From assembly GCA_017937135.1 (NCBI GenBank), contig JAGBEE010000003.1:8637-72636 (forward strand): 64,000 nt of DNA, given 5' to 3'. The notes under the pieces are model-generated. The model was given only the letters and a program-made list of their open reading frames with translations, made no database searches and was not told where the DNA came from. Positions 4,038 to 64,000 of the stretch are shown here, piece after piece (the first letter of the stretch is position 1; each line of letters starts with the position of its first letter). This stretch comes from Clostridia bacterium (GTDB taxonomy: Bacteria; Bacillota; Clostridia; Oscillospirales; CAG-272). Both the position numbers and the translations under genes were made by a program.

Positions 4038-6410
4038 TTATGCACCTAAATATTTTTTAATATCAGAAACGCCTGTGTATTTATTAGCTTGTCCGTTTTT
4101 AACAACTACAAGTGTAGGAGCCTGCTTAATAGAGAACTCCTCTACCAAATCAGCGTGCTCATTTGCTAAGAGCTTTTCATACTTAACGCCTGCCTTGTCA
4201 AGGAAGGAGCAAGCAATTTTACAGTTAGGGCAGGTTGCAGTTGTGAAAAGATAGATAGCATCATTATTTGCTTCTACCTCGCAAGCGCAAGCTTCCTCCT
4301 TTGCCTCAGGTGGTCTGCCATCGCGTGTAAGCTTAGATGTTTCAATGTTGTAAACAAGTCTGTCCTTGTATTCTTGGCTCTTACCATCGTTCCAGTTTTG
4401 AACAGGACGGTAGTAGCCTGTAATACGGCTATATACCTCAGTTCTTGAGCCACACTCAGGACAATGATACTCCTCGCCTGCGATATATCCGTGATTTTTA
4501 CATACAGAATATGTCGGGGAAAGAGTATAGTAAGGCAAACGATAGTTTTCTGCAATTTTTCTTACGAGATTTGCAGCAGCCTTCCAGCTTGGCAATTTCT
4601 CGCCAAGGAATGCGTGGAATACTGTACCTGATGTGTAAAGTGTTTGGAGCTCGTCTTGAATATCAAGAGCTGTAAAGATATCCTCTGTGTAGCCAACAGG
4701 CAAGTGTGAGGAGTTGGTGTAGTAAGGAGTATCGTCCTCTGTCTTTGCAGCAGTGATGATGTCGGGATAGTGCTTCTTGTCGTGCTTAGCAAGACGGAAC
4801 GAGGTTGATTCAGCAGGAGTAGCCTCAAGGTTGTAAAGGTCGCCATATTTTTCTTGATAGTCGGAAAGACGCTCTCTCATATGGTTAAGAACATCCTGTG
4901 TGAATTTTTGAGCCTTTTCGTTTGTAAGGTCCTTTTTAATCCAGCTTGCGTTCAAGCACGCCTCGTTCATACCAACAAGACCAATTGTTGAGAAGTGGTT
5001 ATTGAATGTACCAAGGTATCTCTTTGTGTATGGGTAAAGTCCTGAATCAAGGAGCTTTGTTATAACTGTACGCTTAACCTTAAGTGAACGGGCAGAAATG
5101 TCCATAAGTCTGTCAAGACGATTATAGAAGTCCTTTTCGTCCTTTGCAAGATAAGCAATTCTTGGCATATTGATGGTAACAACACCAACTGAGCCTGTAG
5201 ATTCACCACTACCGAAGAAGCCACCGGACTTCTTTCTAAGCTCACGAAGGTCGAGTCTCAAACGACAGCACATGGAACGAACGTCGCTTGGCTCCATATC
5301 ACTATTGATATAGTTAGAGAAGTAAGGAGTACCGTATTTTGAGGTCATCTCGAAAAGAAGCTTGTTGTTTTCTGTTTCTGACCAGTCAAAATTGCGAGTA
5401 ATTGAATAGGTTGGAATAGGATATTGGAAGCCTCTGCCATTAGCATCGCCCTCAATCATAACCTCGATAAATGCCTTATTTACCATATCCATTTCCTTTT
5501 GGCAGTCCTTGTACTTGAAGTCAACCTCTTTACCACCAATAATACAGTTAAGCTCAGCTAAGTCGTTAGGAACAACCCAGTCAAGAGTGATGTTTGAGAA
5601 TGGAGCCTGTGTACCCCAACGAGATGGAGTATTAACACCATAAATAAAGGACTCAATGCATTTTTTAACCTGTCCATAGGAAAGGTTGTCAATTTTTACA
5701 AATGGAGCAAGATATGTGTCGAATGATGAGAACGCCTGAGCGCCTGCCCATTCGTTTTGCATAATGCCAAGGAAGTTAACCATTTGGTTGCAAAGTGTAG
5801 CTAAGTGCTTAGCAGGAGCAGATGTAATCTTACCTGTAACTCCACCCAAGCCCTCTTGAATTAGCTGCTTAAGTGACCAACCAGCACAATAGCCTGTGAG
5901 CATTGAAAGGTCGTGGATATGAATGTCAGCGTTTCTATGAGCATTTCCGATTTCATCATCGTAAATCTCGGAAAGCCAGTAGTTTGCTGTTACAGCGCCG
6001 GAGTTGGAAAGAATAAGACCACCAACAGAGTAGGTAACGGTTGAGTTTTCCTTAACTCTCCAGTCGTTAATGTCAAGGTAGTTATCTACAATAGCCTTGT
6101 AGTCAACCATTGTTGCGCTCAAATTACGAATTTTTTCTCTTTGGCGACGGTAAATGATGTAAGCCTTAGCAACATCATCATAGCCAGCCTTAATAAGAAC
6201 AGATTCAACACTGTCCTGAATGTGCTCAACGGAAATCTTTCCGTCCTCAATTTTTGGCTCGAATTCTGCAGTTACCTTAAGTGCCAAGAAGTCGATAATA
6301 TCTTGGTTAAATTGCTTTTGACAAGCATCAAATGCTTGTGTGATGGCATCGCTGATTTTTTTAATGTTAAAATCAACAATCTTGCCGTCTCTTTTTACTA
6401 CTGTGTACAT
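4038..6410 (-). CDS. nrdD: Anaerobic (class III) ribonucleoside-triphosphate reductase with a C-terminal glutaredoxin/NrdH-like domain
   Basis: N-terminal ATP-cone (MYTVVKRDGKIVDFNIKKI), Zn-ribbon CKNHGY...CPECG, glycyl-radical motif SRITGYYRPV. A ~100-aa extension follows with CPNC and a thioredoxin-fold pattern (QAPTLVVV). Start moved to the ATG at 6410, which has AAGGAG 8 nt upstream. Confidence 0.92.
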   Translation of the reverse strand: MYTVVKRDGKIVDFNIKKISDAITQAFDACQKQFNQDIIDFLALKVTAEFEPKIEDGKISVEHIQDSVESVLIKAGYDDVAKAYIIYRRQREKIRNLSATMVDYKAIVDNYLDINDWRVKENSTVTYSVGGLILSNSGAVTANYWLSEIYDDEIGNAHRNADIHIHDLSMLTGYCAGWSLKQLIQEGLGGVTGKITSAPAKHLATLCNQMVNFLGIMQNEWAGAQAFSSFDTYLAPFVKIDNLSYGQVKKCIESFIYGVNTPSRWGTQAPFSNITLDWVVPNDLAELNCIIGGKEVDFKYKDCQKEMDMVNKAFIEVMIEGDANGRGFQYPIPTYSITRNFDWSETENNKLLFEMTSKYGTPYFSNYINSDMEPSDVRSMCCRLRLDLRELRKKSGGFFGSGESTGSVGVVTINMPRIAYLAKDEKDFYNRLDRLMDISARSLKVKRTVITKLLDSGLYPYTKRYLGTFNNHFSTIGLVGMNEACLNASWIKKDLTNEKAQKFTQDVLNHMRERLSDYQEKYGDLYNLEATPAESTSFRLAKHDKKHYPDIITAAKTEDDTPYYTNSSHLPVGYTEDIFTALDIQDELQTLYTSGTVFHAFLGEKLPSWKAAANLVRKIAENYRLPYYTLSPTYSVCKNHGYIAGEEYHCPECGSRTEVYSRITGYYRPVQNWNDGKSQEYKDRLVYNIETSKLTRDGRPPEAKEEACACEVEANNDAIYLFTTATCPNCKIACSFLDKAGVKYEKLLANEHADLVEEFSIKQAPTLVVVKNGQANKYTGVSDIKKYLGA

Positions 6411-6543
6411 TGTGAAATCTCCTTTTCTGTCAATTTTTTGGCGCACATCTTTTGTATTTCACTAAAGAAGCGCGCCGTATGCTCAAAAATATAAAATGTG
6501 GTATAAAATCACCCCTTATTTTGTGGGGGAGTGATACTATTAT

Positions 6544-23781: not shown

Positions 23782-26700
23782 ATGAGAAAGAAAGCACTTA
23801 CAAGGATAACGACTGCTGTCGTAGCTGTAATAATGCTTGTCGCGATTTTACTCTCTGTTACAATGTCCGTGTTTGGAAATGGCAGTGTGTACGACCCTTC
23901 GTTTATGAAGCAAGGTCAGCTTAACTTCGACCCAAGCAAGTATTTTGATGGCTCAGTTGTTTATCAATTACCAAGCGGAGTTAAGGACGATGACGAAATT
24001 TCAGTAATCGTTCAGCTCGGCAATGAAGCGCTCTTGGACGCGTACAACAAAACCGATAAGGAAATTACCTTCTCAGAGTTTGTTTACACAAAAGAGGCAG
24101 AGGCTATTAAGCAAGAGATAGCAAGCGAGAAAAACAGTATTCTTGCAACACTTAAGGAAAAGGAAATTGCCTACAAGGCAGGCGCTGATTATTCAGCAGT
24201 TATGAGTGGCTTTGAAATTGTAATCACAGCCAAGGACTTCAAGGATGTATGTCTTTCCTTAGGTGATGGTGCAAGCGCAATTCTCGGTGAGGTTTACAAG
24301 GTTGCCGAAACTGAGCTTGTAGAAAACAAGGTTAATGTTTATGAAACGGGTATTTTTAATAGCGCAGGCTATAAATACGACGGCTCAGGAATGGTTGTTG
24401 CAGTTCTTGATACAGGTCTTGACTACACGCACAGCGCATTCTCAGTAAACAACTTTACATCAAATAAGCTCGGTCTTAATAAGGCTGACGTTGCAAAGCT
24501 TATCGCAAGCACAAAGGCAAGCACCTTGGTAGAGGGACTTGGCGTTGACGACGTTTTTGTTAACAACAAGGTTCCATTCTCATTTGACTATGCTGATAAT
24601 GACTCCGATGTTTACTCCTTGCATAACAACCACGGTACACACGTTTCAGGTGTAATAGTTGGTAAGGACGATACAATTACAGGTGTTGCGCCAAACGCAC
24701 AGCTTGTTTCAATGAAGATATTCTCCGACACACAGGATTCTGCTCGCTCAGCGTGGATTCTTTCTGCGCTTGAGGACTGCGTAATTCTTGGCGTTGACGT
24801 AATCAATATGTCACTCGGTACAGCCTGTGGCTTCAGCCGTGAGAGCGACGAGGAGAAGATTACAGGAGTTTATGATAAAATTCGCGCACAGGGCATTAGC
24901 TTAATAGTTGCTGCATCAAACAGCTTCTCATCTGCTTATGGCTCTGAAAAGAATGGTAACTTAGGTCTTACCTCTAACCCTGATACATCAACAGTTGGCT
25001 CACCATCAACCTATGAGGGAGCTATGTCTGTTGCATCAATCAGCGGTGTAAAGACTCCATACCTTCTCTATAACGGAAAGATAGTTTACTTCCTCGAATC
25101 AACAGATAGCTCAACAGAGGAAAAGAAATTCGTTGAGGAAATCTTGCCAGAGGGAGTAACCGAAAAGGAATTTGAATATGTTGTTATTCCTGGTGTTGGT
25201 AGAGAAGCAGACTACGCCGGAATAGACATAAAGGGCAAAATCGCTCTTGTAAGACGTGGCTCAAACACATTTGAGGAAAAGGCAAACGCAGCCTTGGCAA
25301 GTGGCGCTATCGGTCTTATCGTTTACAACAACATCTCTGGTGATATCAGAATGAATGTTGGAACAACCAAGCTTCCCGTAATCTCCATTTCACAGGTTGA
25401 CGGTGAGGAGCTTGCAAAGGCAGGAAACGGAAAAATCAAAATAAGCACAGAGCAGTCATCAGGACCATTCATGTCTGACTTCTCATCGTGGGGACCATCT
25501 CCAAGCCTTGGCATTAAGCCGGAAATCACAGCGCACGGTGGAAACATACTTTCCTCGGTAACTGGTGGTGGCTATGACCGTCTTTCGGGTACATCAATGG
25601 CTTGTCCTAATCTTGCAGGCGTAGTAATACTTCTTCGTCAGCACGTTATGGATAAGTATCCTAACATTAAAAACGATCCGGTTAAGGTTAATGCATTAGT
25701 TAACAACCTTCTTATGTCAACAGCTGACATAATATTTAACAAAAATGGCTTGCCCTACGCAGTCAGAAAGCAGGGCGCAGGTCTTGCAAATCTTGTAAGT
25801 GCTACAAATACTCCTGCATATATTCTTACATACAACAGAGAAGATAACTCCGTTATGGATAAAACCAAGATAGAGCTTGGTGATGACCCAACAAAGAGTG
25901 GTGTATATACGCTTAATTTCTCAGTAGTAAATACAGGCAACGAAAGCCTTACATATGCTCTTGGAGCATACGTAATGACCGAGGGCGTTAGTGACGTTAA
26001 AACCCATAAGGGTGATACAACCGTAACCGAGGAGGGCTATATTCTTGATGGCGCAGAGATTACCTTCGAGGTGACAAACGCAACCAAGGACGGCGATGAA
26101 ATCATCGTTGAGGCTGGTAAGAGCGCAAATGTTAAGGTAACAATTAAGCTAACTGATGAAAACAAGAAATATCTTGATACATCCTTTGCAAACGGTATGT
26201 ATGTTGAGGGCTTTGTAACCCTTAAGGCAGAAAGCGGAACAGATATCGACCTAAACGTTCCTTATCTTGCATTCTATGGTGACTGGGCACAGGCTCCAAT
26301 GTTAGACCTTGACTATTTTGAAACAAACAAGGACGAGCTCAATGATTCAATAGAAACGCTTGACAAAACCTTGCCTGATGCATATGCAACACGTCCTATT
26401 GGTGGTATTTATGATGACTATGTAAGCTATCTTGGCTCATATTACTTTATGCAAAACCCCAATAACAAGGTTATTTCAGCAAACAGAGATTATATTGCTC
26501 TTTCTAATCAGGAGGGCACAGTCCACTCACTTAGATTTGTATGGGCAGGTATGCTACGTAACGCATCTAAAATTGAGATTTCAATTACAGACGACGCAAC
26601 AGGAGAGGTAATATTCACCTGTGTTGATGAGGATGTAAGAAAATCCTATGGCGACGGTGGCTCATATCTTTACCCTGCAAACGTTGAAATCGAATTTGAC

Positions 26701-29700
26701 ACACAGGATTACAATTTAAAGAACAATACAGAGTACACAGTTAAGCTCGTTGGCTATCTTGACTACGAGGACGGTGGACTTGACAGCAACCTAAAGAACA
26801 CCTTTAAGTTCCCGCTTGTTGCCGACTTCGAGGCTCCATCTGTAACAGACTGCGAATTCTATACAGAATACGACAGCGACCTTGATAAAACACGTCTTTT
26901 TGTAAGACTTGCAGTGTACGATAACCATTATTCAATGGGTATGCAAATCGGTTATATTTCAAATGAAAAGGAATTTTTACCATTTGAAACATATATGGTT
27001 CCAATTTACTCCGAGCGTAATGGTACAACATACGTTGAGTATGAAATTACTGACTTTATCTACGATATAAAGAATAATTCCTTTGAAAACGACTTTTCAG
27101 GTAAGCATATGTTTAATTCTATTGCAGTTGTAGCGTACGACTATGCGCTCAACCTTGCAACCTACGAAATAGGCTTGCCAGATGAGTTCCAAAGATTCTA
27201 TTTTGAAAGCACAGAAATTACACTTAGCAAAAACGAGGTTCACACCTTAAAGCCACTTGCTTATCCAAGCACAGAATGGCCAGAGCTTCTTCAGTTTACA
27301 AGCTCCAACACCAACGTTGCTAAGGTAGTAAACAATAAGGTAATTGCAATTGCCAAGGGTATGGCTGAGATTACAGCAAAGGATCCAAGGACAGGACAAG
27401 AGGAGAAAATGACCATCACCGTCTTAGACCAAGGGGACGAGGGCTGGGTAGAGTACGACAAGCCAATTGCCGACGTGTTCAAGGTAACACAGTACACAAC
27501 TCTAAAGGCATACTTTATTTTGGACAATAACGAAAGAGAAATAGGAACAACAGGCGACGTAACAATATTCGGTAGTGGCAAGGGCTATCACTTAACCCTT
27601 TACCCATCAGAATCCGTTGACCTTGATTACAAGCTTGATGCATACTTCCCAGGCACGAAGGTGACCTTCGAGTCAGGTGATGAGGACATCGTTACAGTTG
27701 ATGAAAACGGTGTTGTAGTTGCTAAGGGAGAGGGCTCATCAGTAATTATGGTAACAGTAAGCCTTGAGGACTCCTACGAAACACTTTCACAAGCAATAAG
27801 CGTTGAGGTTAAGGACCCGTTCGTTACAACTGCACCTCAGCTTACACACTACTATGGTAATGGTGGCTTTGTAGAAATTCCTAAAGAGCTTCTACTTACC
27901 GAAATCGGACAATTTGCATTCTCTAACTTCGATTATGTAATGAAGACACCCGAGGAGCTATTAGAGGACGACCAGTCACTTACAAAGATGGCACCTATTG
28001 GTGATAACACAATTACAAAGGTAGTAATTCCAGAGGGCGTCAAGAAAATAGGCCCGTACGCCTTCGCAAAGCTCACAGCACTTAAGGAGGTAGTTCTTCC
28101 ATCAACCCTTGAGGCTATTGAGTACAATGCATTTGAGGGCTGTACAGCATTAAAGACAGTTAAGGGCTTAGAAAACGTTAAGCTCATTAACAGCTCAGCC
28201 TTCTATAACTGTAATCTCACAGGTACAATTTCTCTTGACTCAGCATGCGCAGTTGGAGATTTTGCATTTGCAGGCAACAAAAAGCTTGAGGGCGTTGTGG
28301 TTTCCTCAACCCTTCAATCAATAGGTGGATATGCCTTTGCAAACGACGAAGCGCTTAAAAATGTAACAGTTAACGCAGAAATAGTTAAGTATGGTCCATA
28401 CGTATTTAGTGGCTGTACTTCACTTGAAAAGATAACAATGAACGCAAACGTAATTCCTGAGGGCGCGTTCTATGGTGCAACCAAGCTAAGCGACGTAACA
28501 ATAGGTAAGGATGTTACCTCAATTGGAGAGTTTGCATTTGCAGGCACTAAGGTTAGTGAATTTAAGCTTGAAAAGGGCAACACAGCATACAAGGTATCAG
28601 CTGACAAGAAATATCTTGTTACAAGCGATGGTAAGACACTTGTTTTAGTTGTTCCAACCTATACGGGCGAGTTTAAGCTTGCTGACAAGAATATTACAAC
28701 AATAGGTAAGGGCGCATTTATTGACAATGCAGAAATTACCTTAATAGAAATACCAAGCGTAACTAAGGTTGAAGCCTATGCCTTTGCATATTGTGACAAT
28801 CTCACAAGCGTTAAGCTTGGTGAGCTTGACTACATCGGTGAATACGCATACTTTGATAGTGCTATAACCGAGCTTCCTTCCTTAAATAAGATAAAGAGCA
28901 TTAGTAAATACGCATTCGGCTTTACTGATATTACCTCTGTACAAATTGCAAACGGAGTAGTTATAGCAGAGGGAGCCTTCTGCGAGTGCGCTAAGCTCGC
29001 AAGCATAGTAATAGGCGACGATGTGGTTATTGGCGATAGCGCATTTATGCTTTCAAGAAATAACAACTCACAGCTTGTTCTTGACGAAACAAGTCCTGTT
29101 GATAAGTTCTACTACTATGATTACACATCAGCACTAACAAGCCTTAAAATAGGAAAAAATGTAGTTATTGGCAGTAGCGCATTTATGGGCGCTTCAAAGC
29201 TTACAGTACTTGAGCTTGGAGAGGGCGCAAAAATAGGAGATAAAGCATTCTTTAGTGCTTGTAGCCTTGAAAGCGTTGACCTTTCTAAGGTAATATCTAT
29301 TGGCGAGGATGCATTCTCTGGCGACGTTGGATATACATATCTTAACGTGGACCGTACTGTAATCAGAACGGATGATGAGGGATATCCAATTTATTACTAC
29401 TACACACCTAAGCTTGAGGTAATCGACCTATCAAGCCTCGAAAGCATCGGAAATACAGCATTCCGTTACTGCTTGAGCTTGAAAGAGGTTAAATTCGGCG
29501 ATAAGCTTGAAAAGATTTCAAATGAAGCCTTCTACTACTGTACATCACTTGAAAAGGTTGATTTTGGCGCAGTTAACAAAATAGGCGAAAGCGTATTCGC
29601 ACTTAGCGCTCTTAAGAAAATAGACCTTTCAAGCGTTATAGAAATTGGCAAGTATGCATTCGTTGAAAGCTATGAGCTTGAAGAGGTGACACTTAATCAA

Positions 29701-31011
29701 AACGGAACAAGCGTAATTGGCGAGGGTGCATTTGGATATTGTAAAAAGCTCTCAAAGGTAAATAATCTTAATAAGGTACAGAATTTTGATGCATATGCAT
29801 TTGCATATACAGAAATCACGTCAGCCAACTTAGAGGAAGCTGTAAGCATTGGCGACCACGTATTTATGAAGGAAAATCTTACCGACTTTGATATTAAGCT
29901 TGGAAATAAGCTTGTAGCACTTGGTGACAACCCATTTGCTAACTGCAAGCTTCAACCATTCTTTATTGAGGAGAAGGAAACCTTTAGGGACGAGGTAGTA
30001 AATACAATAAAGATTTACACCTACGATATAAGCGACACAGTTCACGTAATTGATGGCTCACTTTACTGCGAGGTGCCAAGAGGCTTAGAGCTTATAGCCT
30101 ATGCAGGAATTGACCCAACAAACGTAATAGTAGCTGATAACACAGTAAGAGTAACTGCATACGCCTTTGCTGGCTCTGATGTAGTAAGAGTAACACTTCC
30201 GCACACTCTAAGAGGCGTTGGACATATGGCGTTTATCGACTGCGACAAGCTCCAAATGGTAGCGTTTAAGAGCTTTTTTGCTCCTAACCTTGAGGAGGAG
30301 TTCGACCCAACCTACTATGATACCTACGAAAACTTTGCAGGTACAGGTGATTTCGTAATCGAATTTACAAACGGATACAAGGTAGAGAGTGACGGTCTTG
30401 GCATAGTTCCTTACTATATGTGGAACCTTACTGATACAACCTACTCAAATGTATTCTATGGAGCTAACTTTGTAAACAGAATAGGTCACGGTAATCCTGA
30501 GCTTCTTATGATAAGACCGGTTAACGGAAAATACTATGACTCATTCATTTACGACCAATACTTCGGTATGACCTTTGATGGTATAGTAGCGCCTGATGAT
30601 ATTACAATGGCAGCAATAGATGCTATTAACAAAATACCTGATATGGCTTCATTGACTCTTGAGCACAAGCCGTTAGTTGAGGCTGCAAGAGCAGCATACA
30701 ACAAAATAGCAACCTACGACCAAATGGCGCTTGTCACAAACTATCAAAAGCTTATAGATGCTGAGGGTGTTATGTTGGCGCTTGAGGGAGAAAAGCCTAC
30801 TGAGCCAACACCAGAGGAGCCATTCGACCCAACACCGCTTCTAATTACCTTAGTAGTAGTTCTTGGAGTAATGGTTGTTGGTGGCACAGTATGTGCAATA
30901 TTTGCAGTACGCTACGTGCTTAAAAGAAAGAAATTGACCTTAGGTCAAGCTATAAAAAAGGTTTTTAGTAAAATCTTTAAGAAAAAGAAAAAACAAGAGG
31001 TAAACGAATAA
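23782..31011 (+). CDS. Giant cell-envelope subtilisin-like (S8) serine protease fused to BspA-type leucine-rich repeats, with a C-terminal TM anchor
   Basis: 2409 aa. The features, in order: a signal/anchor; an I9-like propeptide; catalytic VAVLDTGLDYTH (Asp), HNNHGTHVSG (His) and SGTSMACPNLAG (Ser); a PA-domain insert (GKIALVRRGSNTFEEKA...IGLIVYNN); Big_2-like segments; about 800 aa of LRR_5-type repeats (IGxxAFxxCxxLxxV); and a terminal TM helix with a KRKK tail. Confidence 0.9.
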   Translation: MRKKALTRITTAVVAVIMLVAILLSVTMSVFGNGSVYDPSFMKQGQLNFDPSKYFDGSVVYQLPSGVKDDDEISVIVQLGNEALLDAYNKTDKEITFSEFVYTKEAEAIKQEIASEKNSILATLKEKEIAYKAGADYSAVMSGFEIVITAKDFKDVCLSLGDGASAILGEVYKVAETELVENKVNVYETGIFNSAGYKYDGSGMVVAVLDTGLDYTHSAFSVNNFTSNKLGLNKADVAKLIASTKASTLVEGLGVDDVFVNNKVPFSFDYADNDSDVYSLHNNHGTHVSGVIVGKDDTITGVAPNAQLVSMKIFSDTQDSARSAWILSALEDCVILGVDVINMSLGTACGFSRESDEEKITGVYDKIRAQGISLIVAASNSFSSAYGSEKNGNLGLTSNPDTSTVGSPSTYEGAMSVASISGVKTPYLLYNGKIVYFLESTDSSTEEKKFVEEILPEGVTEKEFEYVVIPGVGREADYAGIDIKGKIALVRRGSNTFEEKANAALASGAIGLIVYNNISGDIRMNVGTTKLPVISISQVDGEELAKAGNGKIKISTEQSSGPFMSDFSSWGPSPSLGIKPEITAHGGNILSSVTGGGYDRLSGTSMACPNLAGVVILLRQHVMDKYPNIKNDPVKVNALVNNLLMSTADIIFNKNGLPYAVRKQGAGLANLVSATNTPAYILTYNREDNSVMDKTKIELGDDPTKSGVYTLNFSVVNTGNESLTYALGAYVMTEGVSDVKTHKGDTTVTEEGYILDGAEITFEVTNATKDGDEIIVEAGKSANVKVTIKLTDENKKYLDTSFANGMYVEGFVTLKAESGTDIDLNVPYLAFYGDWAQAPMLDLDYFETNKDELNDSIETLDKTLPDAYATRPIGGIYDDYVSYLGSYYFMQNPNNKVISANRDYIALSNQEGTVHSLRFVWAGMLRNASKIEISITDDATGEVIFTCVDEDVRKSYGDGGSYLYPANVEIEFDTQDYNLKNNTEYTVKLVGYLDYEDGGLDSNLKNTFKFPLVADFEAPSVTDCEFYTEYDSDLDKTRLFVRLAVYDNHYSMGMQIGYISNEKEFLPFETYMVPIYSERNGTTYVEYEITDFIYDIKNNSFENDFSGKHMFNSIAVVAYDYALNLATYEIGLPDEFQRFYFESTEITLSKNEVHTLKPLAYPSTEWPELLQFTSSNTNVAKVVNNKVIAIAKGMAEITAKDPRTGQEEKMTITVLDQGDEGWVEYDKPIADVFKVTQYTTLKAYFILDNNEREIGTTGDVTIFGSGKGYHLTLYPSESVDLDYKLDAYFPGTKVTFESGDEDIVTVDENGVVVAKGEGSSVIMVTVSLEDSYETLSQAISVEVKDPFVTTAPQLTHYYGNGGFVEIPKELLLTEIGQFAFSNFDYVMKTPEELLEDDQSLTKMAPIGDNTITKVVIPEGVKKIGPYAFAKLTALKEVVLPSTLEAIEYNAFEGCTALKTVKGLENVKLINSSAFYNCNLTGTISLDSACAVGDFAFAGNKKLEGVVVSSTLQSIGGYAFANDEALKNVTVNAEIVKYGPYVFSGCTSLEKITMNANVIPEGAFYGATKLSDVTIGKDVTSIGEFAFAGTKVSEFKLEKGNTAYKVSADKKYLVTSDGKTLVLVVPTYTGEFKLADKNITTIGKGAFIDNAEITLIEIPSVTKVEAYAFAYCDNLTSVKLGELDYIGEYAYFDSAITELPSLNKIKSISKYAFGFTDITSVQIANGVVIAEGAFCECAKLASIVIGDDVVIGDSAFMLSRNNNSQLVLDETSPVDKFYYYDYTSALTSLKIGKNVVIGSSAFMGASKLTVLELGEGAKIGDKAFFSACSLESVDLSKVISIGEDAFSGDVGYTYLNVDRTVIRTDDEGYPIYYYYTPKLEVIDLSSLESIGNTAFRYCLSLKEVKFGDKLEKISNEAFYYCTSLEKVDFGAVNKIGESVFALSALKKIDLSSVIEIGKYAFVESYELEEVTLNQNGTSVIGEGAFGYCKKLSKVNNLNKVQNFDAYAFAYTEITSANLEEAVSIGDHVFMKENLTDFDIKLGNKLVALGDNPFANCKLQPFFIEEKETFRDEVVNTIKIYTYDISDTVHVIDGSLYCEVPRGLELIAYAGIDPTNVIVADNTVRVTAYAFAGSDVVRVTLPHTLRGVGHMAFIDCDKLQMVAFKSFFAPNLEEEFDPTYYDTYENFAGTGDFVIEFTNGYKVESDGLGIVPYYMWNLTDTTYSNVFYGANFVNRIGHGNPELLMIRPVNGKYYDSFIYDQYFGMTFDGIVAPDDITMAAIDAINKIPDMASLTLEHKPLVEAARAAYNKIATYDQMALVTNYQKLIDAEGVMLALEGEKPTEPTPEEPFDPTPLLITLVVVLGVMVVGGTVCAIFAVRYVLKRKKLTLGQAIKKVFSKIFKKKKKQEVNE

Positions 31012-45788: not shown

Positions 45789-46049
45789 ATGATTAGAATA
45801 ACACTTAAAATAGAAGGAATGATGTGTGGCATGTGTGAGTCGCATATTAATGATACAATACGTAGAGAATTAAATGTAGATAAGGTAACGTCCTCTCGCT
45901 CAAAAAAAGAGAGTGTAATTATAGCAAAGGACGACATAGAAAACGAAAAAATAAGAGCCTGTGTCGCTAAAACAGGCTATGAGCTTATAAATATTACGAA
46001 GGAACCGTACGAAAAGAGGTCGTTTTTTGGTTTCTTAAAAAGAAAATAA
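45789..46049 (+). CDS. Heavy-metal-associated (HMA) domain protein, CopZ-like
   Basis: 86 aa. GMMCGMCE metal-binding motif in a beta-alpha-beta-beta-alpha-beta pattern. RBS GAAGGAGAG. Confidence 0.8.
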   Translation: MIRITLKIEGMMCGMCESHINDTIRRELNVDKVTSSRSKKESVIIAKDDIENEKIRACVAKTGYELINITKEPYEKRSFFGFLKRK

Positions 46050-46247
46050 TCAAATTAGCTCCATACTTAATTTAATTGCTTTATTGTATCTTGGGATTTG
46101 CTCAGCAAAAAAGTGCAAATCAAACGCATTGTGAATAAAACGTGCGCGATTTAAAAGCTCACCTTTTAAATCATTGTCGAGAGAAAGAAAAAACCTACGT
46201 GAGCTTGAGCTGTTTTTTAGTAGCTCACCTAAATTCAAATAATCCAT
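46050..46247 (-). CDS. Hypothetical small protein (doubtful)
   Basis: 65 aa from the ATG at 46247 (GGGGGTGA upstream). No motif. It abuts the HMA gene stop with zero spacing and has no obvious promoter after the upstream terminator. Confidence 0.3.
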   Translation of the reverse strand: MDYLNLGELLKNSSSSRRFFLSLDNDLKGELLNRARFIHNAFDLHFFAEQIPRYNKAIKLSMELI

Positions 46248-46293
46248 AAAATCACCCCCAATAAAATAAATGCAAAAGTTCATCTAAATATGA

Positions 46294-46326: not shown

Positions 46327-49248
46327 TTAGTAGGGCATTGTCTGTCCCCACAATACTGTTAGGTTCATTAGCATGCCACCATTCCAGCTGCTATCCCAGC
46401 CTGATGGTTTACTGCTTGCCTCGCAATAAACGGTTAATCCATCTGTGCCGTCAATTATATACATTCCAATTGTCTTAACGCTTTTTGAAATATATAGTTT
46501 TGTCATACTAGTATTTTGGAAGGCCCTCATACCAATAGAGGTTACGTTTTTACCAACAACAAATTCTTTAATGCTTGTAAATTCAAAGGAAGCATTTCCA
46601 ATGGTTGTTACGCTTTCAGGTAGTGTAATTTCGACAAGACCTGTGCAATTAGAGAAGGCTCTGTCTCCAATTGTAAGAAGTCCACCCTCCTCAAATTCAA
46701 CACTTGCAAGGCTCCGAACCTCATAAAACGCACAATTACCTATAGCAGTAACAGTGCTTGGCACATTAACGCTTGTAACATCTGTACCATAGAAGGCGTA
46801 ATCGCCAATAGCATAATTTTGACCATAGTAGCCTTGGGGCAGAGTAATTTCGGTATTATCTGCATAATAGCACGCTAAATAATTTACTCCGTCTAAGGTG
46901 TAGAAAACATAAGGTGTATACGATGAGTAGTCCATTATGCTCTCCTCACTCTTGTCTGTGTGTATCACCTTTATTTTGTCCATGCTTGAAAGGTCAATGC
47001 TTGAAAAGTTATAAACCTCTGTTAATTTGTAGCAATAGCCAATTTCCAGGTGCTGAACATTTTGTCCGACAGTCAATCCCACAAGGTCTCTGCCTGGAAC
47101 TAAGCCTGTTACAGTAGTAACGGTATCTGGTATTGATATGCTTACAACGGGAGCGCCATTCCAACTAGAGTAGGTAGTAAAGTCAATCTCGGTAACATCC
47201 TTGCCCTCGTAGCTCATTGGGAATACAAGGTGTATATCAGGACAGCTTCCCCTGCCTGTTATTTTGTATGTGCCATCGCTCTTTAGCTCGTAAACAAGAC
47301 CTTCGCTGTAATATTCATCATTACAGTAATAGCATTTTTCGTTTATGTATCTGTGCTTGCTTTGCGCAATTTCGCTCATTCCCGAAAGAACGGTTTTGCA
47401 ATTAGAGCATCTTGTGCCCGATGTATGTCCTTTACTTGTACACGTCGCATTGAGCTTGCTAACAGCCTCGGGAGTATGATCAAGCATAGGAATAACAACC
47501 TGCGCTGATAAAATTTTATCACACACGGAGCAAATTTCTCCGTCACTTAATCCAGCTTCCTTACAGGTTGCCGCCTTACCGGTAACTGTTTTAGGAGTAT
47601 GTACATCCGACTTTGGTATTTCTGTCTGCTTCGTTATCACTGCGTCACAAACAGAGCACACGCATCCGTCAGTAAGCCCCGTTTCTTTACAGGTTGCTTC
47701 CCTACCTGGCACTATTTGTTCTGTGTGGGGAAGGAGCTTTATAGTTTCCTGCGCAACTGTAATAGTACCACAAACAGAGCATTTTTCACCGTCAGTCAAG
47801 CCTGTTTGGGTACAGGTAGCATCCTTGCCTTCAATGGCTACAGGCGTATGGGGGATAGTTGGTGTTGCTTGTTGCTCAGCAAGCACCTTGTCGCAAACAG
47901 AGCATTTTTGCCCATCAGTAAGCCCCGTTTCCTTACAGGTAGCCTCTTTACCCTTAATGGTTACAGGTGTGTGTACATCTGAAATTGGTATTACTGTCTG
48001 CTCAGTTAGCACCTTGTTACAAACAGAGCACACGCATCCGTCAGTAAGTCCTGCTTCCTTACACGTTGCTTTCTTACCAGCTACTATTTGTTCTGTATGA
48101 GGAAGGAGCTTTATAGTTTCCTGTGCAACTGTAATAGTACCACAAACAGAGCATTTTTTACCATCTGTCAGGCCTGTTTGCGTACAGCTTGCGCTTGTAC
48201 CCTTTATTGTTTGTTCGGTGTGCCCTAATGCGTTAATTGGCTTTTGCTCCTCTGAAAATGTATGGCATACGGAGCATTTTTGACCGTCAGTGAGTCCTGG
48301 CTCAGTACATGTAGGAGCCTTGCCATCAACCTTGATATAACTACAGCTTGCCTTTGGAATACTTGCTTGCTCAACTAAAACCGTATGACAGCTTGTGCAC
48401 TCAATTCCGTCAGTTTTTCCCTCAGTCTGACAGGTGGAAGCATAGCCCTTTAGTACACCCTGTGTATGATTTTCGGGATTTATAGCAAGAGGCAGACCCT
48501 CTTCAAGCACCTCGTTACACATAGAGCATTTTTTGCCATCTGTCATACCAACCAAGGTGCACGTTGGCTCATAGCCTGGAATAACTACCTCTGTATGTTC
48601 AATTTTTGCAATATCTCTTGTTACCTCGTGCTTGCAGAGTGAGCAAACCTTTTTTTCAGAGCCAAGCTCAGTACAGCTTGGCATTTTAATAAGCGTCCAG
48701 TCGCTATAAGCGTGCGTATGTATGCCTGTTCCATCGTTGTTTTGTCCGTTGTTATCATCGTTGTCTGGCTTTTCTTCATTTAGATTTTTAACTAAGAAGA
48801 ATATACCAACAGATAAAACAGCCACAGCAAGAGTAATGCTTAAAATAATGATAAGTATCTTTTTAAGAGACATTTTACCAGCAGTAGTAACATCATTATT
48901 TACATTAACGTCTATATTGATATTCTTATCATCAATGTTTTTCTCATCATTTTTATTAGCCATATTTTTTTCTGGCTTGTCCTCATCAGCCACCATTTCC
49001 TTTGGCTCATTTTGTGGCGTAGGGGTAGGGGACTTTTTCTCTTGTGGATTTAATTCATCATTTAATAAATCATCAAAGCTAACCTCAAATATCTCGGCAA
49101 GCCTTTTGATTTTTTCAAGCTCGGGAACGCTCATTCCTGCTTCCCATTTGTAAATTGCCTGTCTTGAAATGTCGAGCTTGTCAGCAAGCTGCTCTTGGCT
49201 CATTGAATGCTTTTTTCTAAGATAGGCTATCTTATCACTAAGCTGCAT
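46327..49248 (-). CDS. Membrane-tethered XRE-family regulator with extracellular His/Cys-rich repeats and BspA-type LRRs
   Basis: 973 aa. N-terminal HTH (MSQEQLADKLDISRQAIYKWEAGMSVPELEKIKRLAEIF). One TM helix (aa ~127-153). About 11 repeats of ~41 aa (HTxxxxxGKxATCxxxGLTDGxKCSVC). C-terminal LRR_5-type repeats. Confidence 0.85.
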   Translation of the reverse strand: MQLSDKIAYLRKKHSMSQEQLADKLDISRQAIYKWEAGMSVPELEKIKRLAEIFEVSFDDLLNDELNPQEKKSPTPTPQNEPKEMVADEDKPEKNMANKNDEKNIDDKNINIDVNVNNDVTTAGKMSLKKILIIILSITLAVAVLSVGIFFLVKNLNEEKPDNDDNNGQNNDGTGIHTHAYSDWTLIKMPSCTELGSEKKVCSLCKHEVTRDIAKIEHTEVVIPGYEPTCTLVGMTDGKKCSMCNEVLEEGLPLAINPENHTQGVLKGYASTCQTEGKTDGIECTSCHTVLVEQASIPKASCSYIKVDGKAPTCTEPGLTDGQKCSVCHTFSEEQKPINALGHTEQTIKGTSASCTQTGLTDGKKCSVCGTITVAQETIKLLPHTEQIVAGKKATCKEAGLTDGCVCSVCNKVLTEQTVIPISDVHTPVTIKGKEATCKETGLTDGQKCSVCDKVLAEQQATPTIPHTPVAIEGKDATCTQTGLTDGEKCSVCGTITVAQETIKLLPHTEQIVPGREATCKETGLTDGCVCSVCDAVITKQTEIPKSDVHTPKTVTGKAATCKEAGLSDGEICSVCDKILSAQVVIPMLDHTPEAVSKLNATCTSKGHTSGTRCSNCKTVLSGMSEIAQSKHRYINEKCYYCNDEYYSEGLVYELKSDGTYKITGRGSCPDIHLVFPMSYEGKDVTEIDFTTYSSWNGAPVVSISIPDTVTTVTGLVPGRDLVGLTVGQNVQHLEIGYCYKLTEVYNFSSIDLSSMDKIKVIHTDKSEESIMDYSSYTPYVFYTLDGVNYLACYYADNTEITLPQGYYGQNYAIGDYAFYGTDVTSVNVPSTVTAIGNCAFYEVRSLASVEFEEGGLLTIGDRAFSNCTGLVEITLPESVTTIGNASFEFTSIKEFVVGKNVTSIGMRAFQNTSMTKLYISKSVKTIGMYIIDGTDGLTVYCEASSKPSGWDSSWNGGMLMNLTVLWGQTMPY
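47314..48720 (-). repeat. Tandem coding repeats (~123-126 bp units) in the sensor ectodomain
   Basis: About 11 consecutive ~41-42-aa units. Blocks 47647-47811 and 48019-48183 are near-identical (5 of 55 aa differ), 372 bp apart. Confidence 0.85.
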
Positions 49249-49516
49249 GTTTTTCTCCTTGTCGTTTATTTACCGAATTGTTAATTGCCTCGGTTACATG
49301 TTAGAATTATATCACTATGTGGGTTAGAGCGCAAGAAATCAACGGTAGCAAGTTGTCAACTGGTGGTTGCATTTTGTTAAATTCTAATATTCTTATATCA
49401 ACTTTAGTTATATAAATATAATTATACTCAATATCTGAGTAAATGTCAACAATTATAATTGACAATAAATAGAAGGCTGTGGTAACATATAATTAGAAAA
49501 AATTAAGGAGAGATTT

Positions 49517-50941
49517 ATGAAAAAATTTATATTTTTATTAATTTCACTTTTGTTGATTATATCATTACTTGCATCCTGTGGAGAAGGTAGCGACCCAATA
49601 GACACCTCTTCACAATTGGAAACGGGTAGTGAGGAAAACAAAAACCCCGAGCCCAAACCCGAACCCGAACCTATGCCCGACCCCGAGCCCGAGCCTGAGC
49701 CTGACCCAGAACCAAACCCCGACCCAGAACCTAAACCCGAGCCCGAGCCTGAGCCCGAAATTACAAGCATTGAAATTGCCAAGGATGGTATTAGCAATTA
49801 TGTAATAGTTTACTCACTTAATAACAAGGTGGTAAAGGAAAATGCGCTTTTATTTCAGTCATATTTAAAGGATACATATTCAATAGAGCTTGACTGTATA
49901 AAGACAAGCGAGGCACAGGCATCACAGGACAAGAGGATAATTTTCGGCGCATATAAGGGCGACGAGGCGCAAAGACTCACAAGTGGAGATTTTGGAGTGT
50001 TTATGGATGGAGATGACCTCGTTATAACTGCTACAACAAACAACCTATATCCCTACCTTATGGACATATTAAGAGATGATATTTTAAAAGACATTCAAAA
50101 CGGTAGCTGGACAGTAAACAAGGAAGATGATTTTATATACACAAATTCATCATATAAGGATATTGGCTATGTAGAATATATGGTTAGTAAGAATGGTAGC
50201 TTCTCCGAGACACTTTACGAGAAAATTCTAACCTACCAAACTTTTACGTCTGAGGATGGAACAGTATTGCCATACAGAATGTACGTTCCATATGAATATG
50301 ATAAGGATAAGAGCTACCCTGTGTTTGTTTTCTTGCACGGAGCAGGTGAGCGTGGAACTGACAATGTATCACAGCTAAAGAATTTGATAAAGCCATTATT
50401 TGCATTTGAAGGCTCACCGCTTCTTGATGCGATAGTTATTTGTCCTCAATGCCCTTCAGCTAATGACAACAAATGGGTAGATACACCTTGGGAAAACGGA
50501 AACTATCGCGTTGACAAGGTGGCACAGTCAAACGAATTAAAGGCAGTAATGGAGCTGTTTGAAAAAATTGAAAATACCTATTCAACAGATTTGAATAGAT
50601 ACTATGCAATGGGGCTTTCAATGGGTGGCTTTGGCGCGTGGGATTTACTTATGCGCGCGCCCGAAAGATTTTGTGCAATAGTTGCCCTTTGTGCAGGTGC
50701 AGACCCATCTATGGCAGAGGCGCTTAAAAATAAGCCGATTTACACCTTGCACGGAACTAATGATAACGTTGTTCCAATTACAGGCACACAGGAAATGGTA
50801 GATGCATTAAAGAAGGCGGGAAGCACCTCTATAATATACGAGGAAATGCAAGACTATGGGCACAACGTATGGGGATACGTATCCACAAAGCCTGAGATTT
50901 TAGAGTGGCTATTTTCACAAGGGGTGAGCGAAAATGAGTAG
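49517..50941 (+). CDS. Lipoprotein esterase (alpha/beta hydrolase) with a Pro-Glu-rich linker
   Basis: 474 aa. Lipobox LLASC then [13 protein letters not shown] linker. C-terminal hydrolase motifs [20 protein letters not shown] (GxSxG), [16 protein letters not shown]. Confidence 0.8.
49643..49759 (+). repeat. Low-complexity (P-E/D/K)n coding repeat
   Basis: [39 protein letters not shown], with 6-nt periodic CCNGAN DNA. The antisense frame gives a spurious GS-rich ORF. Confidence 0.9.
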
Positions 50942-63346: not shown

Positions 63347-63568
63347 TTATCCATTGAATGTCGTTGGTGTATCGCTAAGTCCGATTAAATAATCGGCTGA
63401 AAGGTTGTAAAATTTACATAGAAGAATTAAGTCCTCGATTTTTAATTCAGCGCGCCCCATTTCAATATGGTTGTAGCCCTGTTGAGATTTGCAAATAACG
63501 CGACCTATTTCGGCCTGCGTAAAATCACGGTCCTCACGCACATTTTTAATTCTCGTTCTATAATCCAA
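63347..63568 (-). CDS. XRE-family HTH transcriptional regulator
   Basis: 73 aa with a TTG start and GGAG 8 nt upstream. HTH FTQAEIGRVICKSQQGYNHIEMGRAELKIEDLILLCKFYNLSADYLIG. Confidence 0.8.
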   Translation of the reverse strand: MDYRTRIKNVREDRDFTQAEIGRVICKSQQGYNHIEMGRAELKIEDLILLCKFYNLSADYLIGLSDTPTTFNG

Positions 63569-63611: not shown

Positions 63612-63658
63612 ATACTCACAATTTGAGTATTGACATTTACTCAAACATTGAGTATAAT
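63612..63658 (+). promoter_or_regulatory. Consensus promoter with two ACTCA-N5-TGAGT operators
   Basis: O1 is ATACTCA-CAATT-TGAGTAT (63612-63630). Promoter is TTGACA (63630-63635), 17-nt spacer, TATAAT (63653-63658). O2 is TACTCA-AACAT-TGAGTA (63638-63654), inside the spacer. Confidence 0.7.
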
Positions 63659-63828
63659 ATATATAAATATTTTTAAAACAAAAGTCATATAAATTTAAAA
63701 ATTTTATAAATTGCAACCAGCAGTTGACAAAAAGCAACCGCTGATTGCTTGCAATATGGCTTTTGGTACGATAGAATACAAGCAAAGAAGCGAGTTAAGC
63801 TTGCAAGATAAGATTAAAGGAGAAGGCA

Positions 63829-64000
63829 AATGAAAAAATTTTTACTTGGAATTGTGTTAGTAATCTCAATTCTATTTGTATTTTCAAGCTGTATAACATC
63901 AGTTGAATTTGATGTTAATTTTATGGTTGAGGGTGAGGTTTATTACACCATTTCAACAAGTGGAACAGAGGCACTTAAAATGCCAGAAAACCCAACTAAG
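63829..64000 (+). CDS. Lipoprotein, 5' fragment (runs off the window)
   Basis: ATG at 63829 with AAAGGAGAAGG upstream. Lipobox VFSSC. Continues FDVNFMVEGEVYYT (Listeria-Bacteroides-repeat-like). Not in the ORF track because it is truncated by the window end. Confidence 0.7.

Follow-up and report, generated by a model that had tools for sequence, protein, structure and literature searches.

One gene of the Clostridia bacterium (CAG-272) assembly GCA_017937135.1 encodes a 973-aa protein that we read, with a probability of roughly 0.55, as a single-pass transmembrane transcription regulator with its N-terminus inside and its C-terminus outside the cell; its helix-turn-helix (HTH) domain would bind as a dimer to a palindrome upstream of the gene, with autoregulation and a readout that depends on the ectodomain. 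The gene lies in the window, that is, the whole stretch of 64,000 nt analysed here (JAGBEE010000003.1, positions 8,637 to 72,636), the features of which are collected in Table 1. What is new is the architectural variant, the class itself being known: a transmembrane transcription regulator (TTR) is a single polypeptide with both a predicted DNA-binding domain and one or more predicted TM regions (PMC10269533), and here an HTH_3 domain and a helix at residues 127-156 are found in the same chain. The published census comprised 4523 TTRs with HTH_3, and BcrR of Enterococcus faecalis is among the known ones (PMC10269533).

Table 1. Features of the regulator gene, its upstream region and the duplicated module (window positions)
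Feature	Position	Strand	Basis or remark
Complete CDS: HTH, linker, TM helix, rod and LRR head	46327..49248	-	973 aa, ATG start
XRE/Cro-C1 helix-turn-helix domain, predicted cytoplasmic, aa 1-66	49051..49248	-	Pfam HTH_3, AlphaFold, superposition
K/N/D/E/P-rich linker, disordered, predicted cytoplasmic, aa 67-126	48871..49050	-	pLDDT below 30
Single TM helix, aa 127-153, K/R residues before (N-in)	48790..48870	-	Kyte-Doolittle and model helix
Juxtamembrane N/D-rich spacer, aa 154-176	48721..48789	-	homologue comparison
Rod, 11 His-Cys3 units (aa 179-631) and degenerate 12th element	47314..48720	-	repeat analysis, unit HMM
C-terminal head, BspA-type leucine-rich repeats, aa 646-973	46330..47313	-	Pfam LRR_5, Foldseek
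Spacer to divergent esterase gene	49249-49516		268 bp
P1, conserved proximal promoter: -35 TTGCGC (49334-49329), 17-nt spacer, extended -10 TGATATAAT (49314-49306)	49306..49334	-	seven-locus alignment
O1, candidate operator, TGCAACC-ACC-AGTTGACAA	49353..49371	-	species variant of family palindrome
P2, distal promoter TTGACA-17-TATAAT, 12/12 match	49421..49449	-	promoter consensus
Inverted repeat TGTCAA-N9-TTGACA (TGTCAACAATTATAATTGACA)	49444..49464		left arm, -35 of P2; right arm, -35 of the esterase promoter
Second P2-O1-P1 module, O1' at 63712-63730	63630..63834	+	duplicate; ends at ATG 63832

Conservation of the HTH above all other domains, a near-invariant recognition helix and a conserved palindrome upstream of the gene make it very probable that the protein truly is a DNA-binding regulator. 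Residues 7-61 matched HTH_3 with an E of 5e-16 (58.9 bits, against a Pfam gathering cutoff of 23), and the closest solved structure was a PbsX-family regulator (9k3w, E 3e-9). In the AlphaFold model the domain folds into five helices (residues 3-13, 18-25, 29-36, 44-54 and 58-62; pLDDT ~80) that superposed on DNA-bound SinR (3zkc_B) with a TM score of 0.86 and an rmsd of 1.3 Å, and on which DdrO and C.AhdI superposed at 1.2-1.3 Å. Identity to distant family members was 59-67% in the HTH against 26-38% in the LRR head. The recognition helix reads SRQA[IV]YKWE in ten family members, the I/V alternation being the only variation; S28, R29, Q30, A31, Y33, K34, W35 and E36 were invariant in these ten sequences. 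Compared with the 78%-identical orthologue P0001, the HTH showed six synonymous codon differences and one non-synonymous, against 107 and 105, respectively, in the rod, and the TM helix was 100% identical. That the 5' module has diverged less at synonymous sites between the window and the orthologous locus (L001) could reflect gene conversion and not selection alone.

The only strongly hydrophobic stretch of the protein lies at residues ~127-153 (Kyte-Doolittle maximum 2.9) and is a helix at residues 128-156 in the full-length AlphaFold model; K/R residues before it and acidic residues after it, as read in the sequence, fit an N-in topology. The preceding linker had a pLDDT below 30 at residues 68-134 of the same model and is 30 to 75 aa long across homologues; its coding region contains an A7 run (48965-48971) that is A6 in another assembly (L004), where the gene is split. 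The N/D-rich juxtamembrane spacer is missing from most homologues, the rod of which begins 1-5 residues past the TM helix. The C-terminal head belongs to the BspA-type LRR proteins by both sequence and fold: residues 814-935 (nt 46444-46809) matched LRR_5 with an E of 4.8e-32 (111 bits, against a Pfam gathering cutoff of 27.7), the AlphaFold model showed periodic strands at pLDDT 80-90, and Foldseek recovered the LRR structures 4gt6, 4fd0, PcpA 4cp6, 4fs7, 4h09 and TpLRR 6mlx (E 5e-8 to 1e-4). While the head is a member of this group, to which Tannerella BspA also belongs, none of these named proteins is fused to a cytoplasmic HTH, and they are secreted or lipid- or wall-anchored. Across the intergenic spacer lies a divergent gene encoding an esterase with a lipobox (LLASC), a PE-repeat linker and alpha/beta-hydrolase Pfam matches. 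A previous reading of the sequence only, made by a model (the sequence-only reading), had already proposed an HTH, a K/N/D/E-rich linker, a single TM helix at the position in Table 1, an ectodomain of ~820 aa with BspA-type LRRs after its repeats, and a 268-bp spacer to a PE-linker esterase lipoprotein gene; Pfam, Kyte-Doolittle, AlphaFold and Foldseek analyses and the measured spacer agree with it on all these points.

The same layout, HTH(1-66)-linker-TM-rod(9-11 units)-LRR_5, was found in nine of the 120 best matches, and five more members were identified in reference genomes, so far as sequence comparison goes a recurrent and Clostridia-specific family. At seven family loci, which were chosen by protein, so that the operator test was unbiased by the motif, a 19-bp palindrome TGTAAACC-N3-GGTTGACA was present in every case upstream of the family gene, 99-130 nt 5' of the ATG and followed by a conserved -35 and an extended -10. 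Across the seven it takes the form AAAATGTAAACC-N3-GGTTGACA, or has TGCAACC or AGCAACC in place of TGTAAACC; conservation is confined to the arms, with the 3 nt between them free to vary. In the window, O1 has a left arm that falls one base short of the family consensus. The half-site centres of the palindrome are 11 bp apart, as is usual for HTH dimers (Cro/CI/SinR-type operators). A scan of 596 Gb with the exact pattern AAATGTAAACCNNNRGTTRWCA gave 51 sites, against ~35 expected by chance by our own arithmetic with equal base frequencies. An ORF for a homologous HTH followed in the right orientation, 68-200 nt downstream, at 21 of the 27 sites in Clostridia and at none of the 24 sites elsewhere. 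The proteins linked to these sites differ in the parts that follow their HTH (rod and LRR, Flg_new and LRR_5, ectodomains of no recognised type, multi-TM or soluble), which suggests that HTH and site move as one module. The genes behind the site in L018 and L049 are a lipoprotein gene and a membrane-protein gene. The exact pattern of the species variant occurs twice in the window, where 0.15 occurrences are expected. Together, these results led us to propose that the palindrome at O1 is likely the operator of the HTH. A different regulator could bind the palindrome instead, and many paralogues share both recognition helix and site, so cross-talk is to be expected.

The proximal promoter P1, the hexamers of which were assigned by eye from the alignment, is conserved over the seven loci as TCTTGC/ATTGTC ... 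TGTGnTAnAAT. With the promoter placed in this way by us, the palindrome is centred near -64, outside the promoter core, and since it does not overlap the core, repression is not an obvious outcome; weaker second palindromes beside the -35 were seen at some loci only. The distal promoter P2 carries in its spacer a further palindrome, TACTCA-N5-TGAGTA (49425-49441), and was not present in the orthologous region of L001. P2 is duplicated at 63630-63658, as part of the second module, and the gene behind that module is a lipoprotein gene that extends beyond the window.

Based on these findings we propose the following model. The cytoplasmic part would be only a phage-repressor-like XRE HTH on a disordered tether of ~60 aa, while eleven 41-aa His-Cys3 mini-domains would form an outer stalk that bears the BspA-type LRR head and probably carries it clear of the membrane and across the cell wall. 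The HTH would most likely bind as a dimer to TGTAAACC-N3-GGTTGACA, here TGCAACC-N3-AGTTGACAA. The gene is probably autoregulated, since O1 lies just upstream of its own conserved promoter, and the lipoprotein gene at 63832 would place at least one more surface-protein gene behind the site. With no dimerisation domain in the cytoplasmic part, binding to DNA should depend on the pairing of two chains by the TM helix and the ectodomain; transcription would then change on contact of the LRR head with a ligand or a surface, or once the ectodomain is lost or cleaved off. We saw no protease gene linked to the locus among the ORFs of the window, and release of the cytoplasmic domain by site-1 and site-2 proteolysis, as in RIP-controlled regulators of the RsiV, RsiW and RsgI type, is kept as a possible mechanism only. 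Because the shared upstream palindrome of the family is probably the binding site of the switch itself, cell-surface contact may directly control surface-protein genes.

Several known systems share parts of this layout. BcrR, a one-component regulator of a Firmicute, also joins an N-terminal HTH of the XRE family directly to membrane segments, but these are four TM helices without any ectodomain, and bacitracin is sensed within the membrane; as described, this sets it apart from the protein studied here, in which a single TM helix leads to an ectodomain of 820 aa. ToxR, CadC and TcpP show the same order of cytoplasmic DNA-binding domain, disordered linker, single TM helix and external sensor, and their DNA binding depends on oligomerisation driven from outside; however, these are Gram-negative proteins with OmpR-type winged helices and small periplasmic domains, whereas an XRE HTH and a rod with an LRR head, such as surface proteins carry, are found here. 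The RsgI anti-sigma-I factors of Clostridium thermocellum are single-pass N-in proteins whose external carbohydrate-binding modules, borrowed from secreted proteins, report to transcription, with an RsgI_N domain that sequesters the sigma factor. In contrast to RsgI, which holds a sigma factor, here the regulator itself is tethered; neither RsgI_N, by Pfam analysis of the protein, nor a sigma-I gene, among the genes of the window, was seen.

The rod of the ectodomain consists of units with a period of 41-43 aa, each of the form [H/C]-x12-C-x10-C-x2-C, and the degenerate element after unit 11 retains H632, C639 and C642 (C639xxC642). An HMM of the unit detected exactly 11 copies in the ORF and none in any other ORF of the window; at DNA level the units have diverged, and Tandem Repeats Finder was silent over the rod. 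The unit is not a chance pattern, as all of the 120 best homologues contain it, in 6-24 copies each. It had no match in Pfam or NCBIfam, when the protein was used as query, or in the PDB by sequence search. A three-unit AlphaFold model (pLDDT 96.9), with three short strands a unit, had no structural match by Foldseek at E <= 0.001; its top matches, which were not significant (E 0.02-0.06, TM 0.2), were the G5-E rods of staphylococcal SasG and Aap, which are likewise stalks of surface proteins built from elongated tandem modules of thin beta-sheet but share no sequence similarity and have no His-Cys3 site, so the likeness is an analogy only. The repeat is found in >36,000 clusters (50% identity) of secreted proteins, up to about 7,200 aa long, that also carry SLH, dockerin, cohesin, Big_2, Flg_new or LRR_5; this distribution suggests that it is a generic structural stalk and not a sensor. 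The sequence-only reading was accurate in counting about 11 tandem units at 47314-48720, in recognising no named domain and in noting a zinc-knuckle-like spacing of one His and three Cys; its view of the repeats as a sensory region is not borne out by so generic a module, which occurs without HTH-TM in 94 of the 120 closest relatives.

This generic design leads to an alternative that we consider rather unlikely, namely that the protein is mainly a BspA-like surface adhesin in which the HTH-TM part serves as an anchor and exerts simple dosage feedback, occupancy of its own promoter rising with the amount of protein, with no outside signal. In those 94 relatives the HTH-TM is replaced by an N-terminal hydrophobic stretch that we read as a signal peptide or anchor, and the paralogue adjoining P0001 is a lipoprotein with a rod and LRR_5; since ordinary secreted and lipoprotein paralogues use an identical ectodomain design, a sensory role is not required of the ectodomain. 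The head is similar to adhesins and surface proteins, PcpA among them, and the ectodomain evolves fast, with about as many non-synonymous as synonymous changes, as expected of exposed surface proteins. However, a TM helix or a lipobox would suffice as an anchor, and the retention of a highly conserved DNA-binding domain and a conserved site in many lineages, with ectodomains of several types, speaks for regulation as the function under selection; moreover, given the lack of a cytoplasmic dimerisation domain, DNA binding would depend on the state of the ectodomain. This alternative overlaps with the model of a membrane-spanning regulator and differs from it only in whether a signal is sensed.

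The cysteines bear on how the rod is held together. The His is kept in 1701 of 1710 units and exactly three Cys in 1669 of them; over 1508 units, C13 was conserved at 99% and C24 and C27 at 100%, as was G17, which is not a ligand. The units thus present four conserved Cys/His ligands that include a CxxC knuckle, as zinc ribbons or knuckles do; no significant match to a described zinc-finger family was found in Pfam, NCBIfam, the PDB or Foldseek, and the CxxC knuckles of homologues gave faint, sub-threshold matches to zinc-finger Pfam families. These data point to a rod that is probably zinc-stabilised, most likely with one zinc ion per mini-domain. That the cysteines form disulfides instead, within or between units, appears to us quite unlikely. 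The rod is extracellular, where disulfides are common, and C405 and C529 give two units of this protein a fourth Cys; but three Cys a unit is an odd number that leaves one of them unpaired within the unit, an invariant His stands alongside them and is replaced by Cys in unit 4, the knuckle weakly resembles zinc fingers, and the hosts, MAGs of gut and rumen Clostridia, are presumably strict anaerobes in which thiols would be reduced.

It is very unlikely, in our judgement, that the HTH is a cytoplasmic protein-interaction module and that another factor, such as a soluble XRE paralogue or BirA, binds the palindrome. RodZ, which resembles the protein described here in having an XRE-type HTH followed by a linker, one TM helix and an external domain, binds the protein MreB instead of DNA and is marked by HTH_25 and DUF4115; both of these were missing from our Pfam matches at E <= 1, and we rejected identity with RodZ. 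The site also precedes genes without an HTH, and soluble family members with the same site exist; against this, the fold superposes on DNA-bound SinR and C-proteins, and the orientation-specific link between site and HTH gene in Clostridia is what autoregulation predicts. The BirA box, TTGTAAACC-N14/15-GGTTTACAA (PMC545781), has the same 8-bp half-sites as the family palindrome (PMC545781), but its spacer is 14-15 nt, one helical turn longer, and it goes with biotin genes, whereas the family site goes with XRE and surface-protein genes. In spite of the matching half-sites TGTAAACC and GGTTTACA, we rejected a BirA box, as the spacer is 3 nt at all loci and biotin genes are absent.

Finally, the sequence-only reading had the HTH bind TGTCAA-N9-TTGACA and control the divergent esterase lipoprotein gene, which is highly improbable: the inverted repeat does exist, its arms share the TGTCAA/TTGACA core with the family half-site (best profile score 11.8, spacer 5) and divergent control from O1 is possible, as O1 is only about 90 bp from the esterase promoter, but the arms are the -35 boxes of two back-to-back promoters, the perfect P2 on the left and the plus-strand esterase promoter (TTGACA-18-TAACAT with TG) on the right, the repeat lacks the inner AACC/GGTT core, real sites score 21.7-30.2, the duplicated module at 63.6 kb keeps only the TTGACA arm, and neither the repeat nor the adjacency is found at L001 (the closest other species), which has a different gene upstream, nor does any other family locus have an esterase in that position.

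The 41-aa His-Cys3 unit is among the larger unannotated repeat families that we have seen here. Once described, it would make for better annotation of cellulosomal, S-layer and adhesin proteins throughout Clostridia, and the repertoire of known stalk modules would gain one that is extracellular and probably zinc-dependent. It is tempting to speculate, although we hold it doubtful, that gut and rumen Clostridia possess a "sensor-adhesin" class in which LRR_5, Flg_new and other surface-protein ectodomains are carried on a hitherto undescribed extracellular zinc-rod repeat by a tethered XRE repressor with one shared operator, TGTAAACC-N3-GGTTGACA, and in which physical contact with a host, a particle or a neighbour reprograms the surface proteome through a cross-talking regulon, without a kinase or a sigma factor. 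Although gut bacteria commonly have transmembrane one-component regulators, very few of these are understood, and almost none of those in Clostridia; this family offers a concrete test case in which the DNA site and the promoter layout are defined and the ectodomains can be swapped. If the model is true, surface proteins of the adhesin type would also act as receptors, signalling contact directly to transcription.

The best-supported reading of the regulator protein is that of a transmembrane transcription regulator. Pfam placed an HTH_3 domain at residues 7-61 (E 5e-16) and BspA-type LRR_5 repeats at residues 814-935 (E 4.8e-32), and neither Pfam nor NCBIfam matched residues ~177-645. The ORF, the single transmembrane (TM) helix and the roughly 11 tandem His/Cys units put forward in a sequence-only reading were all borne out: residues 127-153 are the sole strongly hydrophobic stretch, and eleven units of 41-43 aa with the pattern [H/C]-x12-C-x10-C-x2-C span residues 179-631, followed by a degenerate twelfth element. 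As Lys/Arg residues precede the helix, acidic residues follow it and the protein is without an N-terminal signal peptide, the HTH is placed in the cytoplasm, with ~820 residues outside. In the full-length AlphaFold model the HTH has five helices (3-62) and is followed by a linker lacking structure (68-134, pLDDT < 30) and a single long helix at 128-156; a three-strand unit then occurs eleven times, ahead of a head made of periodic beta-strands (pLDDT 80-90). The exact protein was absent from a collection of 15 billion sequences, a protein-based scan of reference genomes returned no close relatives, and a search with the N-terminal 175 aa, whose yield is limited by the word index, gave 6 matches only. 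Rfam had no match in the 5' leader or in the gene.

Features of the window, by position
Feature	Position	Strand	Remarks
2409-aa protein	23782-31011	+	Subtilase S8, PA, Fn3-like, Big_2 and seven LRR_5 stretches
HMA (heavy-metal-associated) protein, small	45789-46049	+
77-aa ORF	46050-46283	-	Directly downstream of regulator gene; no Pfam match
Regulator gene	46327-49248	-	973 aa
A7 run in linker codons	48965-48971		A6 in the 98.4%-identical assembly L004 (L004 8001-10921)
Palindrome O1, candidate operator	49353-49371
Esterase lipoprotein gene	49517-50941	+	474 aa; called as 428 aa in L004, owing to 1-nt deletion
Small XRE protein	63347-63568	-	73 aa; divergent from lipoprotein gene at 63832
Duplicated regulatory region	63630-63834	+	~190 bp; distal promoter, O1-like site, proximal promoter
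O1-like site	63712-63730	+
Lipoprotein gene (MKKFLLGIVLVISILFVFSSC...)	Starts 63832	+	Runs off window; no HTH

Seven family loci (the window, L001, which carries the orthologue P0001 from the closest other species, L002, L005, L007, L009 and L010) were retrieved by protein, with no DNA motif used, and all seven have the same arrangement of elements upstream, 99-130 nt from the start codon. It consists of an A-tract (7/7), a 19-bp imperfect palindrome, TGTAAACC-N3-GGTTGACA, whose arms are conserved and whose spacer is free to vary (7/7), a -35 box (TCTTGC or ATTGTC) ~18 nt past the palindrome and an extended -10 element, TGTGnTAnAAT. The left arm is one base shorter in the window (TGCAACC) and in L001 (AGCAACC), and between these two the conservation of the upstream region is limited to its proximal ~125 bp. 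The half-site centres lie 11 bp apart, a distance usual for HTH dimers, and some family loci carry a weaker second palindrome beside the -35 box.

In the reverse test, the exact pattern AAATGTAAACCNNNRGTTRWCA was scanned against 596 Gb of reference genomes, yielding 51 sites in 50 loci, where our own arithmetic with equal base frequencies gives ~35 by chance. Twenty-seven sites fell in genomes of Clostridia, Oscillospiraceae, Lachnospiraceae or Eubacteriales. In 20 of these cases a correctly oriented ORF with a homologous HTH (phmmer E 1e-14 to 1e-29) lies 68-200 nt past the site; a 21st, in L048, is followed by a decayed HTH copy. No such ORF follows any of the 24 sites from other phyla. This distribution speaks against the rival explanation in which the palindrome is bound by another factor. 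Two scan loci coincide with the protein-retrieved set, L035 being the contig of homologue P0083 and L024 being similar to P0038; all the others are new. Behind the HTH, the C-terminal part may be TM+rod+LRR, TM+Flg_new+LRR_5, TM plus an unknown ectodomain, three TM helices, or soluble. As the proteins encoded downstream of the site differ after the HTH, the HTH and the site make up a conserved module in which the C-terminal part can be exchanged, and such a pattern would be expected if this HTH subfamily autoregulates.

The idea that the palindrome is a promoter for an alternative sigma factor, of ECF or sigma-I type, was weakly rejected: inspection of the alignments found no conserved CGTC/CGAA-type -10 at the right distance, and an ordinary extended -10 promoter follows the palindrome. 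A BirA box was ruled out by spacing. A pair of BirA-box-like half-sites with roughly BirA-like spacing, TTTTTAACC-N13-GGTTGTCAA, does occur at 5662-5692, within a coding region (ORF 4038-6446, minus strand), and is probably due to chance.

The full design, with the HTH at residues 1-66, a linker of 30-75 aa, one TM helix, 9-11 units and LRR_5 repeats, was found in 9 of the 120 best matches. The HTH is the best-conserved part, family members being 59-67% identical to the window protein there and 26-38% in the LRR head, and in the recognition helix, SRQA[IV]YKWE, eight residues are invariant and Ile32 is nearly so (Val in one member). Codon changes between the window gene and that of P0001, the 78%-identical orthologue, numbered 6 synonymous and 1 non-synonymous in the HTH, against 107 and 105 in the rod. 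Compared with a distant member, identity of the HTH is 67% at the protein level and 69% at the DNA level, which is consistent with long-term purifying selection; gene conversion could be a further source of the lower synonymous divergence of the 5' module between the window and P0001. The modelled domain superposes at ~1.3 Å on DNA-bound SinR, DdrO and restriction-modification controller proteins, and its closest solved relative by sequence is a PbsX-family regulator.

The sequence-only reading had proposed the inverted repeat TGTCAA-N9-TTGACA as the operator and the divergent esterase gene as a plausible target. The repeat (49444-49464), the 268-bp spacer and the esterase lipoprotein with its PE linker are all present; neither regulatory proposal was supported. 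A promoter scan identified the arms of the repeat as the -35 boxes of two promoters, the left belonging to a perfect minus-strand promoter, TTGACA-17-TATAAT (49449-49421), and the right to the esterase promoter, TTGACA-18-TAACAT with TG. The repeat is without the AACC/GGTT core, scores 11.8 with the half-site profile versus 21.7-30.2 in real sites, and is not kept in L001; the duplicated module at 63.6 kb keeps the TTGACA arm only. Adjacency to the esterase is restricted to one species (the window and L004); a lipoprotein gene with rod and LRR takes its place in L001, and other lineages have unrelated neighbours. The (PE/PD/PK)n linker of the esterase is encoded by an imperfect 6-nt tandem repeat of ~19 copies (49646-49758).

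Even with two mismatches allowed, the species variant of the palindrome, TGCAACC-N3-RGTTGACAA, occurs exactly twice in the window (0.15 expected). The second occurrence makes the lipoprotein gene behind the duplicated regulatory region a candidate second target of the regulator. The palindrome also stands upstream of a lipoprotein gene in scan locus L018 and of a small membrane-protein gene in L049. Two palindromes of another kind, TACTCA-N5-TGAGTA, flank the distal-promoter -35 box at 63613-63652, and a third (49425-49441) lies in the distal-promoter spacer of the HTH gene; they probably represent the operator of the 73-aa XRE protein, in which case a second layer of control would be added.

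The claim that the repeat belongs to no named domain stood, the unit being outside every domain or structure library searched; that of a sensory region was not supported. The unit HMM found 6-24 copies in each of the 120 best database matches. In an alignment of 1508 units, conservation is 100% at Gly17, Cys24 and Cys27 and reaches 99% at Cys13; exactly three Cys occur in 1669 of 1710 units, and a His 10-16 residues N-terminal of the first Cys in 1701, with Cys alone there in 4. Unit 4 of the regulator has Cys in place of His. The odd number of Cys, the invariant His and the interchange of His and Cys argue for a metal site, most likely for zinc, and against the rival explanation that the cysteines form disulfides. 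A three-unit model built from 50 sequences (pLDDT 96.9) had no significant PDB match by sequence or by Foldseek, the top Foldseek matches being non-significant ones to SasG/Aap rods. At E <= 1e-3 the three-unit profile matched 36,164 cluster representatives, of which 9,045 remained at E <= 1e-30; the matched proteins reach ~7,200 aa, and their other domains include SLH, dockerin, cohesin, Big_2, Flg_new, FN3 and LRR_5; an N-terminal hydrophobic stretch, read as signal peptide or anchor, was present in 94 of the 120 closest relatives. This distribution among secreted-type proteins marks the unit as an abundant undescribed extracellular building block of Clostridia and argues for a structural stalk rather than a sensory module. 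Over the 3.7 kb compared, the window and L004 show 59 differences, 26 of them within a 200-bp part of the rod (48000-48200), and units 5-6 and 8-9 (residues 343-425 and 467-549) are near-duplicates, which suggests gene conversion between repeat units.

In L004 the shorter A6 run splits the regulator gene into ORFs of 111 and 878 aa. Because the esterase gene of L004 has also lost 1 nt, and other split homologues are broken at unrelated positions (P0263/P0265 within the LRR region), a sequencing or assembly error is likelier than phase variation; the A7 run is a potential slippage site. Beside the orthologue, L001 (1-5778) carries a decayed HTH gene of 195 aa, its HTH 97% identical before out-of-frame sequence, upstream of a 1761-aa lipoprotein with rod units and LRR_5, and in L048 a truncated HTH runs out of frame into an LRR C-terminus. 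Decay or recombination seems to turn family members into ordinary surface proteins; past these decay products, no support was found for a shufflon or cassette system.

Comparison of the family loci revealed no gene neighbourhood conserved across lineages. The loci of P0018, P0038 and P0059 have in common an upstream Mbeg1-like gene and a downstream MutS2-L28, but this reflects only synteny within a lineage; in L005, L007 and L009, of one lineage, the gene always lies between an Mbeg1-like/phospholipase-like gene (upstream) and MutS2-L28-DUF6873-CdaA (downstream). A hydrolase gene recurs near family members (the esterase in the window, Hydrolase_4 in L010), which may be coincidence. The 77-aa ORF is conserved (65 aa in L001, 77 aa in L004), and past it lie the small HMA gene and a DUF1538 membrane protein; a tie to the supply of metal for the rod would be pure speculation. 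The 2409-aa protein has no His-Cys3 units and shows that the organism invests heavily in BspA-type surface proteins.

For the transmembrane regulator, we propose that the tethered XRE domain would autoregulate via O1, whose centre lies near -64 relative to the proximal promoter P1 as we placed it, and would probably control further surface-protein genes. Because the protein has no more than a flexibly tethered HTH in the cytoplasm, the TM helix and the ectodomain would determine dimerisation and hence operator occupancy. The input would be contact of the LRR head with a ligand or a surface, or else cleavage of the ectodomain. A less likely rival explanation is an adhesin with simple feedback. 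In the literature we found no paper on HTH+LRR_5 proteins, on Firmicute XRE regulators that are tethered to the membrane and have extracellular domains, or on the His-Cys3 repeat. Transmembrane transcription regulators are an already known class, with 4523 HTH_3 members in census work (PMC10269533); what is new is the coupling of an XRE HTH to a surface ectodomain of rod plus LRR, together with a candidate operator shared family-wide.
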